DNA of 64,000 nt from Elusimicrobia bacterium GWA2_62_23 (GCA_001799635.1 MGTV01000048.1:16760-80759), one strand, 5' to 3'; counted from the first letter of the stretch, positions 57,596 through 64,000 are shown. Translations and numbers: made by a program. Notes: generated from the sequence alone by a model not told the origin.

Positions 57596-57706
57596 CCCGG
57601 GAGAGATAACACTCCCGACTCAATAAAACCCGCCATCTCCGACGACGGTGCCCCGGCTATATTGTATAATTGCTCAAGTCAGGGCGGCACTTTCCGAGGA
57701 GACATA

Positions 57707-60700
57707 ATGAATCACTTCGCTAAATTTCACATCGCTTTTTATTTCTTTGCCGGCTTACCTCTGACGGTTCTGGCCCAGGCAAACGCCGATTCGCCCTGCG
57801 CCGTATTCGGGCAGCAGGTAGAACGAAAGAACCTCGCTGACGGAGCGGGAAAGTGGGGGAACCTGGCCAAGGCCATAGCCGCTGACCCGCTGGCCGCGCA
57901 GTTGGGCCTGGACAAACTGGCCTACGGCGCGGGAAACCGCGTCTCGTACGATTTCGACCTGAAAATAGGGGACGACGAACTGGAACTGGAGGGCGACCTC
58001 TACTTCGATCCGGAGCCCGCCGCCGGCGCCCCCGCCGCCACCCTGCGCGCCAAGACCCAGTCCCGCACCCGGACCGACCTGGTGGAGCTGGGCGCCCTGC
58101 GCGCTACCGCGGCCGAACTGCACGCCGCCCTCTACAAGGAGACCGGCGGCTATAAGCTCTACGCGCGCCTGGTGCCGTATTTCGCCGATCATAACAAGGA
58201 ACCCCGTCCCTGCATCATGCTCTCCAAAGGCAAAGAGGGGGTGGACTTCGCCGTGACCGGCGGCGGCCTGCTGCTCAAGGAGCTCTACCCGGCGGCCGGG
58301 AAAGTTAAGTTCTTCGACCAGTTCGCCCTCAAGGGCGTGGCCAAGCAGGGCAAGGAAATAGACGTGCTGGGCGCCGTGAACGGCAAGGATCTCAAGGCCG
58401 AATTCGAGAACGGGCGGGACTACCTGCTGGTGACCGGCCAGGACCTGGTCCTGTCCGATTTCATCCCCGAGGCGGGGGCGGCGCCTTTCCTGGACGGCTT
58501 CTCTTTCGAAAGTTTAGAACTGGCCGGCGGCACCATGACCGTAAACGGCCTGCAGAACGGCAAGAAAGTTTCCGTCTGGCGCGGCGCGGATAAAAAGTCC
58601 TTCGCCGTGGAGGGCGACGATCTGAAACTGGAAGACTTCATTCCCGCGGCCGCCAAGGTGCCCTGCGTCAACGGCCTGGCGCTCGACAGCGTGGTGAACC
58701 GCGACGGCCAGCTGGCCATTACCGGCAAGCTGGGCGGCAAGGCCGTGGCGGCCGCCGCCTACCCGGCGGAGAACCGCCTGGAGCTGAGCGGCCCGGCCCT
58801 GAGCCTGCCCGCCTGCCTGCCCGCCTTCGACCTGCCTTTTTTTAAGTTCTTCTCCTTCGGCGGTCTCTTCAGCTGGCCCGACCGGCTGGAGATAGACGGC
58901 ACCGTGAACGGCAAGGACGTGAAACTGGTCTGGATCTTCGCGCCCAATACCGTGACCGTGACCGGCGAGAGCCTGCGCCTGGACGACTTCATTCCCGAAG
59001 CGGCCAAGGTGCCCACGCTCAAGGGCTTCGCCTTCCTGAGCCTGGAATACTCCAAGGCCTCCACCCGCGTGCAGGGCACCGTGAGCGGCAAGGCCATTAG
59101 CGTGACCCAGTCCAACGCCGACAAGACCTTTACCATCACGGGCGATAAGCTGACCCTGGCCGATTTCATCCCCGAGACCGCCGGTCTGACTTACCTCGAC
59201 CGCTTTACCCTCAGCAAGGTACAGAGGCGCTCCGGCGGCGTTAGCGTGGCCGGCGCCGTGGACGGCAAGGCCGTGACGGTGGACAATGACGAGGCGGCCA
59301 AGGCCTTCACCATCACCGGCGAAAGCCTGAAGCTGGCCGACTTCGTGCCCGAGGCCGCGCAGGTGCCTTTCCTGCAGGTCTTCGCGGCGACCTCGGTGCG
59401 CAGTTCTCCCGACGAGTTCCTGGTGACCGGCAAGGCGGGCGCCAAGGCCGTGACGGTGGACGACCACCTCTCCTCAAATATCTTCACCGTGACCGGCGCG
59501 GGCCTGACCCTGCAGGATTTCTTCCCGGCGGCCGCCGAGGTCCCGGCGCTGAACGCCTTCGCCTTCGAGCGCTTCACCCATACCGCCGACGCGGTGGCCG
59601 CCGCCGGCCGGGTGAACAACAAGGCCGTGAGCGTACAAAGCGGCCCCGGCACAGGCGAATTCACCGTGAAAGGCGACGCCCTGAAGCTCGCGGACTTCGT
59701 CCCGGCGGCCGCCAAAGTGCCTTACCTGGCCAATTACGCCTTCCTCTCGCTGACGCGCTCCGAAGCGCAGCTGCGCGTGGACGGCACCGTGAACGGCAAG
59801 AACGCCGCCGTCACGCTGGACAAGGCCGCCAAGACCTATACCGTCACCGGCTCGGCGCTGCAGCTGGCCGATTTCGTGCCCGACGCCGCCAAACTTCCCT
59901 ACCTGGCCCGTTTCGATCTGACAAAGGTGCAGGAGCGCCCCGACGGGGTGCTGGTGATAGGCGACGTGGACGGCAAGGCCGTCTCGGTAGAATATTTCCG
60001 GGCTACGGCCTCCTTCAAAGTGACCGGCGACGGCCTGCAGCTCAAGGACTTCATCCCGCAGGCGGCCGGCGTGGCCTACCTGGACAATTTCAAATTCGAC
60101 TCGCTCGCCTACGCGGCCTCCGTACTGACCGTGACCGGCCGCATCAACGACAAGGCCGTGACCGTCAAGAAGACCCTGGGCGCGCCGGACTTCTCCGTGA
60201 CCGGCGACAGCCTGACGCTGGCGGACTTCATCCCCGGCGCCGACCAGGTGCCCTGCGTGAGCGCCTTCGCGCTGGACAATGTGCGCCGCTCCGACGCCGA
60301 GCTGGGCATAGCCGGCAAGGTGGGCGGCAAGCCGGTGTCCATCACCGACTATATCGCCGAGAACCGCGTGCAGATGACCGGCCCTGGCCTCAGCCTGCCC
60401 GCCTGCCTGCCGCTCTCTCTGAACATCCCTTTCCTCAAGCTCTTCAGCTTCGGCGCCCTTTTCAGCTGGCCCGACCGGCTGGAGGTGGACGGCACCGTGA
60501 ACGGCAAGGACGTGAAGGTGGTGTGGGTGTTCGCGCCCGATACCGTGACCGTGACCGGCGACAGCATAAAGCTCGCCGATGTGCTGCCCTCCACGGCGCG
60601 CCTGCCTTTCCTGAACTCTTTCGCCTTCCTGGAACTGGATTACTCCAAGGCCGAGACCTCGGTGAGCGGCACCGTAACGGGCAAGAACGTGACCGTGACC

Positions 60701-63700
60701 AAGGACAATGCCTCCGAGTCGCTGAAGGTGACCGGCGACGACCTGAAACTCACCGACTTCGTGCCAGAGGCGGCCGGTCTGCCTTTCCTTAAAACTTTCG
60801 CCTTCGACGCCCTGCTTTACACTCCGACGGCGATCACCGTGAACGGCACCATAAATTTCAAGGCCGTGGCGGTGAACAAACCTTTCGGCCCCGGCGCGGG
60901 CTTTACCGCTACGGGCGAAGGCCTGACGCTCGCCGACATAGTGCCCGAGGCCGGCGGCCTCAAGGCCTTCGACAAGTTGGCCCTGGACCTGGTCTCGGTC
61001 TCACCCGCCGAAGTAAAAGTGGCCGGCAAGCTCGGCGGCAAAGCGGTAGCCTTCTCGCGCACCCGCGGCGACAAGCCGGTGTCCACCATCACGGCCGACG
61101 GCCTGACGCTGGGGGACATCTACGCCCCGCTGGCGGCCCTGCCCGCCGTGAACGCCGTGTCCATGGATAAGCTCAGCCTCGACGGCTCCTCCGTGGAGGC
61201 CGAGGCGCGCCTCAACGGCGTAAAGGTGGCCGTGGCCGCCCACGCCGACGCAGGCGACTCCGGCGCCTATACCGCCATCTTCTTCGACACGCTCTCGGCC
61301 GGCACCTTCATACCCGCCGCGCAGGGCCACGTGGTAAACGAGCTTGCGCTGGAAAAGGCCCTGTTCGTAGTACAGCCGGCTGGCTCGCAGCCGCGCACGC
61401 TGGCCGCGGCGGACCTGCCCGGCAGCCTGGCCAGATTGGCCGGCTGGGGCGGGGGAGACAGCCTGCCGCTCGCCGAAGGCGTTAATTTCGCCGCCTGGCT
61501 CAATGTAGGCAAGTCCGGCTCCCTAGGCGCCGCCTTCCGCACCGCCGGCCTGCCGCCGGCGAGCCTGCTGCTGAAAGGCACGCTCTCGCCGAACACCTTC
61601 AAGAACATGACCGGCAAGTCGCAGACGGCCGCAGCCTCCCTGCAGGAAGCCGACAAGCAGGCCCTGCTCGCCGGGCTGAACCTGTCCGTGCCCGTGCCCC
61701 TGCCTCCGCTGCCGGCGCTCGCCGGCATGGTGACCGTGCGCGGCCCCGCCATCCTCTCCATAGGCGGCGACGCCAGGAGCAAAAGTTCGCTCTGGGCCCG
61801 CGTGCCCGCGGCCATAGCCGCCTCCAAGCCGGCGGGGGACCTGGACGTTTCCCTGCAGTTCGGCCTCGACGTGACCGGCGCCGGCATTAACGAGAAGCTG
61901 GACGCGCTGGTAAGCCTCGACAAGGGCGCGCGCGCCGGCTACAGCCTGCTCGCCGTCTACGAAGGCGCCTGGAAGCAGCCTTTCGGCATACAGGGCCTGA
62001 CCCTCGACAATGGCGGCTTCGAGTTCAGCCTGGAGAAAAGCGCCGACGCCTCTAAGAGCGGCCTGGGCTTCTTCGCCACCGCCCTGATAGGCCAGAAGAG
62101 CGTGGCCGTGACCGCCCAGCTCAAAAGGGAGAACGGCAAGCTCTCGCTCGAGTACTTCGAACTGGACGGCAAGTTCCGTCCCGGCGACTTCCCCGGCGGC
62201 AAGAACATCCCCTACGGCGACAAGTTCGAACTGGACCAGTTAAAGCTCTCCCCGCGCGGCATAGAGGCGAAGACCGTCATAGCCGGCAAGAAGGTGGACG
62301 CCTACCTGTTCGACGCCGGCGCCGCCGGCGCGCCCAACTGGATCTTCGCCGCGGCCCAGAAGAACTTCAGCGTGGCCGAGCTGCTGCCGGCCGCCAGGGC
62401 AATTAAGCCGCTGGCCGCCATGACCATACCCGACGCCGCGCTGATAGTCTCCGAGAAGGGCCTCAAGAACGCGGACCGCGCCTCGCTCGGCGTGATAGCC
62501 AAGGACCTGTTCGACCGCGTGCTCGGCAAGTCGGCCGTAAAGATCAATGTTCCCGACGGGATCAGCGTACTGGCCGGCTTCGACGCCGACGCCATGGGCC
62601 CCGTGGGCAAGGGCCTGCGCGGCATAGGCGTGCACGACGACGCCCTGGTGATGGGCGCCGTTACCGGCGTCTTCGCCGGCAATCCGGGCGTGATGCTCTC
62701 CATAACCATGGAGAGCGGCGGCGACCCCAAGGGCCTGCCGAAGAAAGTGGTCAGCTTCCGGCCCGGCGTGCCTCCCTCCTACTTCATCCAGTGGTCCGGC
62801 ACCGAGCTGGACGCCGGCCTGAAAGCGCCGCTGGTGGTCAGGGCCGGCAAGGAAACGCTGAACATGGACGCCGACCTGGAGCTCAAGTTCGCCGACAGCG
62901 GCGTGGGCGTGAAGGTGCTGGCCGCCATGGACGGCACCTGGCGCCAGCCTTTCGGCATCAAGGGGCTGATCCTCAAGAACGTGAAACTGGACCTGGCCGT
63001 GAACGAGACCGGCGAGGTGCAGCTGGGCTTCGCCGGCGACCAGCTGTTCGGCCGCTGCTCCAATCCCAAGTCGCAGGACTGTCTGGACCTGGACATGGCC
63101 ATGAGCGTGAAGATCCCGCTGGAAGACGGCCTGCCCGACGGCGTGGCTTTCGCCGGCAAGACGCCGCGGCTGGGCCTGGCCCAGCTCCTGGACATCACCG
63201 AGGGTCTTACCGGCGCGCCGGCCGGCAGCCTGCTGGCGCAGCCCGCGCCTTTCTTCGAAATAAAGGACGCGCAGCTGGCCTTCGCCACCCCCGGCGCTTC
63301 GGACCCGCAACTGGGCCTGGTGGGCGAGGGATTCGCTTTCGCCGGCACTTTCGTGTTCATGAACCGCGAGTTGGGCCGTGTAAAAGGTTCGGGCGGCCCT
63401 TCCGGCACCGCCGTGAAAGGGACAATAGGCGACATAGACCTGGAGATCATCAAGTTCACCGGCAACAGCATAGATTTCGCGCTGGGCGCCAAACCGCGCT
63501 ACGCCATAGATTCCAGCGTGAACCTGCTGGGCGCGCCCCAGAAAGTAAAACTGGACATAGAGCCGCCCTACTTCGAGTTCGACCTGACAGAAAAGCTGGG
63601 CGCTTTCGGGAACGCGCTGCTGACCGTACGCATGGACGGCTTCGACCTCAAGAAGGGCACCTTCGACAAGAACGCCGGCATCAGCGTGACCGGGGTGTTC

Positions 63701-64000
63701 AAGTCCACGTTGATCCCGTGGATGAAAGACGAGGTAAAGAAAGGCGTAGAGGAACTGCGCGACTCCGCCAGGGCCAAGTTCGACGAGGACACCAAGGCCC
63801 TGGAAGAGGCAAAAGCCAAAGTGAACGAAATCAACGATAAGATAGAGAAGATAAAGAAAGAGGACCAGAAGGCCAAGGACCGCGCCGAGGAGGCGCTGGA
63901 GTCCGCCCGCCGCCGGGTCAATTCCCTGCAGGACAAATACGACCACGAGGAGCACCAGGCGCATCACTGCGGTTCCCGGTGGACCCACTGGGCCTGCTCG
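57707..64000 (+). CDS. Giant secreted repeat protein, >2098 aa, 3' truncated by window edge; absent from the ORF track
   Basis: TATAAT (57665) and GAGGAG RBS, ATG 57707, signal-peptide-like MNHFAKFHIAFYFFAGLPLTVLA; no stop found on hand translation of this frame through to ...RWTHWACS at 64000; strong GC3 bias. Confidence 0.88.
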   Translation, partial: MNHFAKFHIAFYFFAGLPLTVLAQANADSPCAVFGQQVERKNLADGAGKWGNLAKAIAADPLAAQLGLDKLAYGAGNRVSYDFDLKIGDDELELEGDLYFDPEPAAGAPAATLRAKTQSRTRTDLVELGALRATAAELHAALYKETGGYKLYARLVPYFADHNKEPRPCIMLSKGKEGVDFAVTGGGLLLKELYPAAGKVKFFDQFALKGVAKQGKEIDVLGAVNGKDLKAEFENGRDYLLVTGQDLVLSDFIPEAGAAPFLDGFSFESLELAGGTMTVNGLQNGKKVSVWRGADKKSFAVEGDDLKLEDFIPAAAKVPCVNGLALDSVVNRDGQLAITGKLGGKAVAAAAYPAENRLELSGPALSLPACLPAFDLPFFKFFSFGGLFSWPDRLEIDGTVNGKDVKLVWIFAPNTVTVTGESLRLDDFIPEAAKVPTLKGFAFLSLEYSKASTRVQGTVSGKAISVTQSNADKTFTITGDKLTLADFIPETAGLTYLDRFTLSKVQRRSGGVSVAGAVDGKAVTVDNDEAAKAFTITGESLKLADFVPEAAQVPFLQVFAATSVRSSPDEFLVTGKAGAKAVTVDDHLSSNIFTVTGAGLTLQDFFPAAAEVPALNAFAFERFTHTADAVAAAGRVNNKAVSVQSGPGTGEFTVKGDALKLADFVPAAAKVPYLANYAFLSLTRSEAQLRVDGTVNGKNAAVTLDKAAKTYTVTGSALQLADFVPDAAKLPYLARFDLTKVQERPDGVLVIGDVDGKAVSVEYFRATASFKVTGDGLQLKDFIPQAAGVAYLDNFKFDSLAYAASVLTVTGRINDKAVTVKKTLGAPDFSVTGDSLTLADFIPGADQVPCVSAFALDNVRRSDAELGIAGKVGGKPVSITDYIAENRVQMTGPGLSLPACLPLSLNIPFLKLFSFGALFSWPDRLEVDGTVNGKDVKVVWVFAPDTVTVTGDSIKLADVLPSTARLPFLNSFAFLELDYSKAETSVSGTVTGKNVTVTKDNASESLKVTGDDLKLTDFVPEAAGLPFLKTFAFDALLYTPTAITVNGTINFKAVAVNKPFGPGAGFTATGEGLTLADIVPEAGGLKAFDKLALDLVSVSPAEVKVAGKLGGKAVAFSRTRGDKPVSTITADGLTLGDIYAPLAALPAVNAVSMDKLSLDGSSVEAEARLNGVKVAVAAHADAGDSGAYTAIFFDTLSAGTFIPAAQGHVVNELALEKALFVVQPAGSQPRTLAAADLPGSLARLAGWGGGDSLPLAEGVNFAAWLNVGKSGSLGAAFRTAGLPPASLLLKGTLSPNTFKNMTGKSQTAAASLQEADKQALLAGLNLSVPVPLPPLPALAGMVTVRGPAILSIGGDARSKSSLWARVPAAIAASKPAGDLDVSLQFGLDVTGAGINEKLDALVSLDKGARAGYSLLAVYEGAWKQPFGIQGLTLDNGGFEFSLEKSADASKSGLGFFATALIGQKSVAVTAQLKRENGKLSLEYFELDGKFRPGDFPGGKNIPYGDKFELDQLKLSPRGIEAKTVIAGKKVDAYLFDAGAAGAPNWIFAAAQKNFSVAELLPAARAIKPLAAMTIPDAALIVSEKGLKNADRASLGVIAKDLFDRVLGKSAVKINVPDGISVLAGFDADAMGPVGKGLRGIGVHDDALVMGAVTGVFAGNPGVMLSITMESGGDPKGLPKKVVSFRPGVPPSYFIQWSGTELDAGLKAPLVVRAGKETLNMDADLELKFADSGVGVKVLAAMDGTWRQPFGIKGLILKNVKLDLAVNETGEVQLGFAGDQLFGRCSNPKSQDCLDLDMAMSVKIPLEDGLPDGVAFAGKTPRLGLAQLLDITEGLTGAPAGSLLAQPAPFFEIKDAQLAFATPGASDPQLGLVGEGFAFAGTFVFMNRELGRVKGSGGPSGTAVKGTIGDIDLEIIKFTGNSIDFALGAKPRYAIDSSVNLLGAPQKVKLDIEPPYFEFDLTEKLGAFGNALLTVRMDGFDLKKGTFDKNAGISVTGVFKSTLIPWMKDEVKKGVEELRDSARAKFDEDTKALEEAKAKVNEINDKIEKIKKEDQKAKDRAEEALESARRRVNSLQDKYDHEEHQAHHCGSRWTHWACS
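58250..61320 (+). repeat. About 17-18 tandem coding repeats, mostly 177 nt (59 aa)
   Basis: Motif (V/I)TG..L.L.DF(I/V)P at about 59135, 59312, 59489, 59666, 59843, 60020, 60197 and on both sides. Confidence 0.88.

Follow-up and report, generated by a model that had tools for sequence, protein, structure and literature searches.

A giant lectin-ended repeat protein and its adjoining TPR-secretin in Elusimicrobia bacterium GWA2_62_23: a candidate two-gene export module

A stretch of 64,000 nucleotides of Elusimicrobia bacterium GWA2_62_23 (G000:C48:16760-80759, hereafter the window) ends within a gene for a giant protein, which was followed into the surrounding contig. The protein has 2,629 amino acids (aa), with a predicted signal peptide, a regular array of 59-aa repeats, a conserved beta-rich core and, at its C-terminus, predicted ricin-type lectin domains. 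The stop codon of its gene is overlapped by the start of a second gene, which encodes a lipoprotein combining a tetratricopeptide repeat (TPR) part with a secretin domain. The giant gene and a secretin of its own suggest a minimal, undescribed route to the export or display of one giant protein. The initial annotation, made from the window, described a giant secreted repeat protein and proposed for it the part of a lipid bridge, a contact-dependent effector or an adhesin; the description stands, the lipid bridge is not supported, and both the lectin end and the TPR-secretin lay beyond the window.

The paired secretin and its linkage to the giant gene

Related loci were found via the core of the giant protein and number 40 (7 genome and 33 metagenome loci). 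A secretin homologue is located directly 3' of the giant gene and on the same strand in 38 of them, with a distance of -4 to +162 nt between the stop of the giant gene and the start of the secretin gene, and the linkage persists where the giant protein is only 25-30% identical. One of the two exceptions (L038) is a contig that ends before the stop of the giant gene; the other is discussed below. At each of the six distant loci that were scanned the downstream product consists of TPR plus Secretin (PF00263). The identities of cargo and secretin fall together across the loci (e.g. 89/88, 72/75, 45/48 and 28/31%). In a phylogenetic tree the 17 paired secretins are placed on one side of a branch with 100/99 support, opposite the other three secretins of this genome, long-branched paralogues that were the only outgroup.

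The paired secretin begins with a lipoprotein signal (MKK...FSGC), followed by TPR at aa ~50-250; an N3-like part and the secretin domain together occupy aa ~318-537. All 17 aligned secretins share the lipobox cysteine. PF00263 is matched with 102.6 bits (cut-off 27.5), and the best sequence matches in the PDB are GspD (5wln, E 8e-14) and RcpA (8odn, E 3e-12), the latter with the longest coverage (residues 341-538). Membership in the GspD, PilQ, SctC or MshL subfamilies was considered and rejected: the scores are far under the curated NCBIfam cut-offs (79.3 vs 351, 61.1 vs 284, 61.8 vs 238 and 59 vs 250, respectively), the matches of these models span only residues 311-538, and the N-terminal domains were not found. 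No match to Secretin_N or STN was obtained at E <= 0.01, and the ~90 C-terminal residues that follow the secretin domain match no family. Complex prediction with aa 22-385 of the secretin and aa 25-300 of the giant protein, both segments being guesses, returned a score of 0.00, which is evidence neither for nor against an interaction.

Two further features of the secretins were observed. The protein of this genome ends in LGFFWY (consensus of the relatives, LGFLYY), an aromatic C-terminus reminiscent of the outer-membrane beta-signal. At one distant locus (L039:15959-18397) the secretin has an added SPOR (peptidoglycan-binding) domain between its TPR and secretin parts, which suggests that the N-terminal half of that protein sits at the cell wall.

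Architecture and range of the giant protein

The plus-strand frame that begins at ATG 57707 is open to base 64000 (2,098 codons), and its extension into the contig reaches the full length with no stop or N before the end. It is missing from the default list of open reading frames (ORFs) because it runs off the end of the window. From the N- to the C-terminus the protein consists of a signal peptide, an N-terminal domain, the repeats, the beta-core, a helical hairpin, an alpha/beta element with further helices, and two lectins (Table 1). The N-terminus, MNHFAKFHIAFYFFAGLPLTVLAQA followed by N, reads as a cleavable Sec signal peptide. The N-terminal domain is absent from five short relatives (P0028, P0033, P0034, P0037 and P0038), in which the first repeat starts at aa ~27-32.

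In a motif scan, L.L.DFIP recurred at a strict spacing of 59 aa. A hidden Markov model (HMM) built from the units detects 17 of them, with 59.7-84 bits each, and a weak 18th inside the core (aa 1494-1537, 9.4 bits); these scores are circular, because the HMM was built from the same units. The reality of the repeat rests on three non-circular results: 13 orthologues (59-89% identical) keep the array with every unit in place, relatives carry 2-37 units (same HMM), and the fold of nine units (aa 297-827) is predicted confidently by AlphaFold2 (AF2), with a predicted local distance difference test (pLDDT) of 91.2 and a predicted template modelling (TM) score of 0.74. Mean identity between units is ~34%. 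A block of three units (aa 298-473) recurs as a duplicate at aa 828-1004, the corresponding units being 54/72/56% identical, and it is to this duplication that the two variant units at aa 357 and 887 (SLPACLP...FSWPDR) are due.

In the AF2 model the short strand of each unit is FTVTG, the two or three very short helices lie in L.L.DF.P.AA.VP.L, and the three antiparallel strands are 8 residues long. Strand positions 2/4, 27/29/32, 39/41/45 and 50/52 are hydrophobic in 88-100% of the units, with T, S, K or D as neighbours; within the helical excursion (16 residues), nine positions are hydrophobic in 76-100% of the units. The best fold match is the G-box of CPAP/SAS-4, with one alignment of 120 residues at Z 8.6 and a root-mean-square deviation (rmsd) of 3.5 A and another of 149 residues at Z 7.8 and 3.1 A. 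Engineered OspA aligns in order over seven units, in stretches of 248-290 residues with Z 6.8-6.9 and an rmsd of 10-14 A. The Z scores for these sheets (6.4-8.6) fall in a range where the structural aligner warns that a common arrangement may be all that is shared. Foldseek gave TM scores of 0.24/0.32 for engineered OspA and of ~0.1 for propellers; the propeller matches reflect only the four-stranded meander. The single-layer-sheet matches argue for a continuous antiparallel ribbon, in which the modelled units would form one extended single sheet instead of closed beads. With its helices the ribbon would probably have two layers, a polar outer face and a hydrophobic face buried beneath the helical excursions, and if uncoiled it would be ~30 nm long (68 strands at ~0.48 nm per strand).

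No known family accounts for the repeat. None of the 17 single units matches Pfam below E 0.05, the repeat region of the whole protein has no Pfam match at E <= 1, and neither repeat nor core has anything in Pfam or NCBIfam at meaningful E-values. A phmmer search of the whole protein against PDB sequences gave a single hit, at E 0.95. The repeat profile, searched among candidates of <=2,000 aa, found 3 proteins, all of the giant-protein family, which is weak evidence from sequence that the repeat is confined to that family. Comparison of repeat and core with hhalign gave one repeat-like stretch (51 columns, 85% probability).

The core consists of two modules (aa ~1233-1584 and ~1590-1963), each with a W[KR]QPFGI.GL motif. 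Its halves align with each other in hhalign (probability 97.9%, E 4e-13, 301 columns); judging by this alignment, the ~810-aa core is an internal tandem duplication. In the AF2 model, residues 1-811 have pLDDT values of 70-90 in most blocks of 10 residues. The alignment profile of the core found only pyocin tube proteins among PDB sequences, at E ~1. The hairpin that follows is built of helices of 86, 37 and 36 residues (model residues 813-898, 904-940 and 945-980), and its tip carries the His/Cys/Trp motif HHCGSRWTHWACSPGW (aa 2086-2101), in which Cys2088 and Cys2097 are invariant in 14 orthologues. The tip is rich in His (DHEEHQAHHC...THWAC; window 63968-64000 and L001:8728-8769). Its residues could suit a clasp that binds metal or senses pH, and not a disulfide loop alone; of 144 family representatives, 6 gave a match to the motif in a regular-expression search. 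Beyond the hairpin there is a small alpha/beta element, with further helices to aa ~2335.

Most of what the initial annotation had read from the window agrees with these results. The frame of more than 2,098 codons contains no stop, and the by-eye reading of MNHFAKFHIAFYFFAGLPLTVLAQA agrees with the signal peptide. The 17-18 repeats claimed correspond to 17 clean units and the weak 18th, their consensus to the column statistics of the units, and the four or so strands with a short helical loop to one short and three long strands with a helical excursion in the AF2 model. The repeat had been called unrecognised, as the Pfam searches of the 17 units bear out, and the beta-rich region, coiled coil and Cys/Trp motif HHCGSRWTHWACSPGW said to follow it are all present. 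Closed globular beads, named as an outcome that would speak against the annotation, are not what the nine-unit model and the single-layer-sheet matches indicate.

The C-terminus, by Pfam gathering score, is of the ricin lectin type, and glycan binding is predicted. PF00652 is matched in two stretches at aa 2346-2472 (51.4 bits, cut-off 29) and PF14200 with 48.3 bits (cut-off 25.6). The lectin-type CDtoxinA model also matches the C-terminus, with 23.5 bits against a cut-off of 22.

A word-indexed search returned 42 relatives of 1,528-4,358 aa, 39 of which contain ricin-type lectin families according to precomputed annotation. Most of the named relatives are labelled as metagenome-assembled genomes of Elusimicrobia; one is labelled Halobacteriovorax marinus and one Methylomirabilota, and marine metagenome contigs are represented too. 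When the core profile was searched against 1.84 billion representatives, 705 clusters (defined at 50% identity) were found at E <= 1e-3, 436 at <= 1e-10 and 214 at <= 1e-30. The 59-aa HMM matches 32 of the 144 representatives listed. Among 21 diverse representatives the C-terminal modules were ricin-type lectin (12), tectonin or tachylectin only (2) and HYR/FlgD-Ig (1), with none detected in 6; F5/8-C and DUF5648 occurred as extra domains, and Pfam showed no enzyme or toxin domain in any of the 21. Atlas look-ups of the giant protein led to unnamed clusters (scores 0.91/0.90/0.89).

Minus-strand ORFs of up to 582 aa overlap the giant gene (e.g. window 62240-63988). As the DNA is ~65% GC, the antisense ORFs within 57707-64000 most likely do not code and only shadow the true frame. 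A summary of the features is shown in Table 1.

Table 1. Features of the giant gene and the adjoining genes. Plain numbers are window coordinates; the L001 coordinate equals the window coordinate minus 55240.
Feature	Coordinates	Strand	Basis or remark
Putative extended -10 box TGTATAAT	57663-57670	+	Read by eye, lead only
Putative ribosome-binding site GAGGAG	57696-57701	+	5 nt 5' of ATG 57707; read by eye, lead only
Predicted signal peptide MNHFAKFHIAFYFFAGLPLTVLAQA, aa 1-25, AQA before N	57707..57781, preceding 57782	+	n/h/c-region pattern read by eye
N-terminal domain, aa 26-179	57782..58243	+	Without Pfam match
Array, 17 units of 59 aa, aa 180-1183	58244..61255	+	Motif scan, HMM, AF2 model
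Conserved beta-rich core, aa 1190-2001	61274..63709	+	Two homologous ~350-aa modules
Start of helical hairpin, aa 2002-~2180	63710..64000	+	AF2, orthologue alignment
Two predicted ricin-type beta-trefoil lectins	aa ~2345-2629, past the window	+	Pfam
Stop codon of giant gene	L001:10354-10356	+	Contig sequence
Lipoprotein TPR-secretin gene, 628 aa	L001:10353-12239 (window-equivalent 65593-67479)	+	Overlaps giant stop by ATGA
HtrA-like S1C protease gene, signal peptide, without PDZ domain	L001:12176-12937		Third gene; Trypsin_2 111 bits

Possible working of the pair and alternative readings

The reading favoured here, for which the balance stands about even, is that of a Sec-exported, lectin-tipped, adhesin-like rod that is exported by, or anchored in, its own secretin. 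To judge from the signal peptide, the Sec system would export the 2,629-aa protein into the periplasm. The product of the downstream gene would assemble in the outer membrane, its TPR part serving perhaps as a built-in pilotin or docking scaffold, and the gene linkage suggests that the giant protein would cross the outer membrane via this secretin or stay lodged inside it; retention is put forward as a hypothesis. Outside the cell, the 17 units would form the continuous antiparallel ribbon, with helices covering the hydrophobic face, as a stalk of adjustable length, which would bear the duplicated beta-core, the hairpin and the C-terminal lectins, the last binding glycans on a surface, prey or partner cell. 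A stalk of variable length, a swappable glycan-binding end and a dedicated channel are together what a lectin-tipped fibre would have, and the adhesin or contact-dependent effector of the initial annotation fits the ricin-type lectins that lay outside its view. Fibrillar adhesins are composed of stalk repeats, an adhesive domain and a cell anchor. Tandem stalk repeats, variable in number among the relatives, and terminal, swapping lectins are present here.

Several observations weigh against the rod-like adhesin. No cell anchor was found (no lipobox, and no anchor domain among the Pfam hits), so that a released protein would fit as well as a displayed one. What is universally conserved is the core plus hairpin (1,100 aa), which a pure adhesin does not explain; this part may be a module that engages the secretin, or a membrane-active device. 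Foldseek searches with the core model found nothing at E <= 0.001 in the PDB (best E 6e-3, TM 0.06) and a best E of 3e-2 among viral models, and both structural-alignment lists for this model are filled by generic coiled-coil matches to the hairpin, not to the beta-core. The buried face and the straight or coiled geometry of the ribbon are derived from secondary structure, sequence pattern and fold matches, not from coordinates. The gene is patchy: it was found in 4 of 301 sampled genomes of the phylum including this one, all of one family. Other parts of the genome encode T2SSE-type ATPases and three further secretins (see below), which could act in trans. Finally, one locus (L030), a short, low-coverage contig of 2.5 kb, has a truncated lectin end followed by an unrelated ORF on the opposite strand and no secretin. 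In the relative encoded there (L030:1-1626) an unrelated-looking tail replaces the second lectin domain, perhaps through chimeric assembly or through a genuine swap of domains.

Among the other genomes of the same genus, 1 of 5 carries the giant gene; the pair behaves as an accessory, horizontally moving module. A bolder reading, less likely than not but with a substantial chance, is that of an autonomous pathway. A self-piloting TPR-secretin, in which no N-terminal platform-contact domains are detected, working with no ATPase, pseudopilus or inner-membrane platform, would export or hold one Sec-delivered giant; the core and hairpin of the cargo would engage the channel, and the 59-aa ribbon would be a new fibre fold. 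The pair would then be a secretin-based counterpart of two-partner secretion, transferred horizontally beyond Elusimicrobia to the relatives labelled Halobacteriovorax and Methylomirabilota and to those on marine contigs. To our knowledge, secretins are known only within multi-protein machines, i.e. type II secretion systems (T2SS), type III secretion systems, type IV and Tad pili, and filamentous phage export. If the autonomous pathway were true, a two-gene module of cargo plus secretin moving between phyla would pose the question of how a secretin opens for, passes or holds a 280-kDa protein with neither piston nor ATPase, and of whether an export route has been overlooked in uncultured diderm bacteria. 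The cargo family is large, as the cluster counts show, and, lectin ends apart, unannotated; the beta-ribbon predicted with confidence for its 59-aa unit is regular and matches no Pfam family. The two-gene size makes the system directly testable by heterologous expression.

An unlikely alternative is a lectin-targeted toxin or membrane-active effector, in which the lectins bind the target, the hairpin or core perturbs its membrane, and the secretin is merely the exit. Lectins joined to pore-forming modules are known from CEL-III and Vibrio cytolysins. The CDtoxinA match at the C-terminus, the conservation of core and hairpin in a family that swaps its lectins, and the naming of one relative as from the predator Halobacteriovorax would all suit such an effector. 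The hairpin aligns with AhlC (Z 9.2/9.1), XaxA (Z 9.0), YaxA (Z 8.3), colicins E3/E9 (Z 8.5-8.6) and XptA2 (Z 8.2), but all of these are below the noise level for long helices (Z ~13) and rank beside the coiled coils of SMC, BAR and chemoreceptor proteins. No catalytic domain and no known pore-forming one was found in the giant protein or in the 21 family representatives, the pair has no small immunity-like gene conserved beside it, and a stalk of such variable length is more typical of surface fibres.

Slightly less probable again is an ordinary cargo or accessory of a T2SS, type IV pilus or Tad machine located elsewhere, with the secretin as a displaced component of that machine. Candidate machines are at hand, as the 3-Mb genome contains 4 secretin genes and 10 genes for T2SSE-family ATPases (C15, C32, C39, C48; C3, C16, C25, C28, C29, C38), more type IV filament-like systems than a genome of this size usually has. 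In Omnitrophota, giant genes adjoin secretion loci of more than 10 genes with gspD/E/F, according to bioRxiv 10.1101/2023.11.21.568195. Against this, the pair travels alone: no ATPase, pilin, GspC/PilP-like or GspF gene was found within 10 kb at six distant loci, where the other 24 flank products scanned yielded no T2SS or type IV pilus ATPase, pilin or GspF and belonged to unrelated housekeeping genes. None of the 10 ATPase genes is on the 90-kb contig of the giant gene, and two of the three other secretins adjoin T2SSE-type ATPases (on C39 and C32), whereas the paired secretin does not. The Secretin_N and STN domains of known systems contact the inner-membrane platform. In the paired secretin neither is matched, and a TPR lipoprotein domain takes their place.

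The lipid bridge proposed by the initial annotation, an AsmA/TamB/VPS13-like protein whose repeats form a hydrophobic groove carrying lipids across the periplasm or between cells, is very improbable. A long, unbroken antiparallel sheet that is strictly hydrophobic on one side would suit it. So would the weakly matched ApoB100 beta-belt (Foldseek E 3-5e-4, TM 0.15-0.22; Z 6.2) and pieces of LptA, LptC and LptD (Z 4.7-5.5). Proteins of this kind have an N-terminal inner-membrane anchor; here the hydrophobic N-terminal segment, ending in AQA before N, reads by eye as a cleavable signal peptide. Yet no AsmA, TamB or YhdP model was matched at E <= 1 (part within the window) or E <= 0.01 (full length), no AsmA-like or VPS13-like structure is among the matches listed, the nine conserved hydrophobic residues of each excursion would most simply bury the sheet face, an extracellular location is what the lectins and the dedicated secretin of the outer membrane suggest, and the variable number of units fits poorly with a periplasm of fixed width. 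DUF6603 (PF20248), a lead given by the same annotation, had an Atlas score of 0.82 to a cluster with 24% carriers, a lead only, and was not confirmed by an HMM search of the whole genome, in which nothing matched at E <= 10; no mention of DUF6603 was found in the literature searched.

Neighbouring genes and likeness to known systems

The protease gene is located 3' of the pair in 17 of the 40 loci, all of them with a giant protein at least 59% identical. In the lectin-tipped fibre favoured above, this adjoining periplasmic HtrA-like protease of the Elusimicrobia clade would process the cargo or clear stalled copies. One distant locus has, immediately after the pair, a gene for a peptidase inhibitor of the chagasin family (I42; L026:6946-7959), at the position held by the protease in the Elusimicrobia loci; control of proteolysis beside the pair may be a recurring theme. 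The upstream genes for pyruvate kinase and ABC-F are common only with the closest locus, L006. Past the three-gene cassette (L001:13028-17799) are genes for a PadR-family regulator, a chromate transporter, an AAA+/DUF4143 ATPase and DUF3800, none of which is conserved beside the cassette at the other loci.

No description of the giant family or of a module of cargo plus secretin was found in a literature search that covered few subscription journals. The family and the two-gene module are rated as a variant of secretin-dependent export and of fibrillar adhesins.

In its fold, the repeat model resembles the G-box of CPAP/SAS-4 (4by2, 4bxp) and engineered OspA (2fkj, 3ec5), which are extended antiparallel meanders with no closed barrel or sandwich; identity is 6-11%, and those sheets lack the helical excursion seen here in every unit. 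Proteins of the AsmA/TamB/VPS13 type share great length, repeated antiparallel strands and an amphipathic sheet, and differ from the giant protein in that the latter has lectin ends, a coupled secretin, and units of four strands under a hydrophobic helical cover.

The giant proteins of Omnitrophota have a predicted antiparallel beta "tubule" with exterior helices and are encoded in T2SS-like loci (West-Roberts et al., bioRxiv 10.1101/2023.11.21.568195). As described there, they are secreted, adjoin gspD-type genes, have a predicted beta-sheet with regularly spaced short helices on one face, and have been suggested to serve in attachment, all as here; they are more than 10 times longer than the present protein, and their loci contain more than 10 secretion genes including gspE and gspF, where the present one has the secretin alone. 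The modelled repeats may yet form an open groove or coil into a similar tubule.

With regard to its possible working, the pair is comparable to two-partner secretion (FHA/FhaC), in which a large repeat-rich cargo likewise has one dedicated, adjoining outer-membrane channel. FHA and LapA-type cargo share the stalk of variable repeats with adhesive modules at the far end, and LapA-type giant adhesins are retained in their outer-membrane pore, as stated in bioRxiv 10.1101/198937. The channel differs, being a secretin here and not Omp85/TpsB or TolC-like, and in contrast to type I secretion adhesins the giant protein has a predicted Sec signal peptide. Two-partner secretion proper (TpsA/TpsB) was rejected, since no haemagglutination-activity (TPS) domain is among the matches of the giant protein and its partner is a secretin; it belongs to neither that family nor the LapA family, its Pfam matches being only lectin-type and weak hits.

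The likeness to RcpA with its TPR lipoprotein pilotin TadD (8odn) lies in the combination of a TPR module and lipidation with a secretin. In contrast to RcpA/TadD and to GspD (5wln), no pilus or secretion ATPase genes are near the pair at the six distant loci, TPR, lipobox and secretin are fused in one polypeptide, and this polypeptide is paired with one giant gene.

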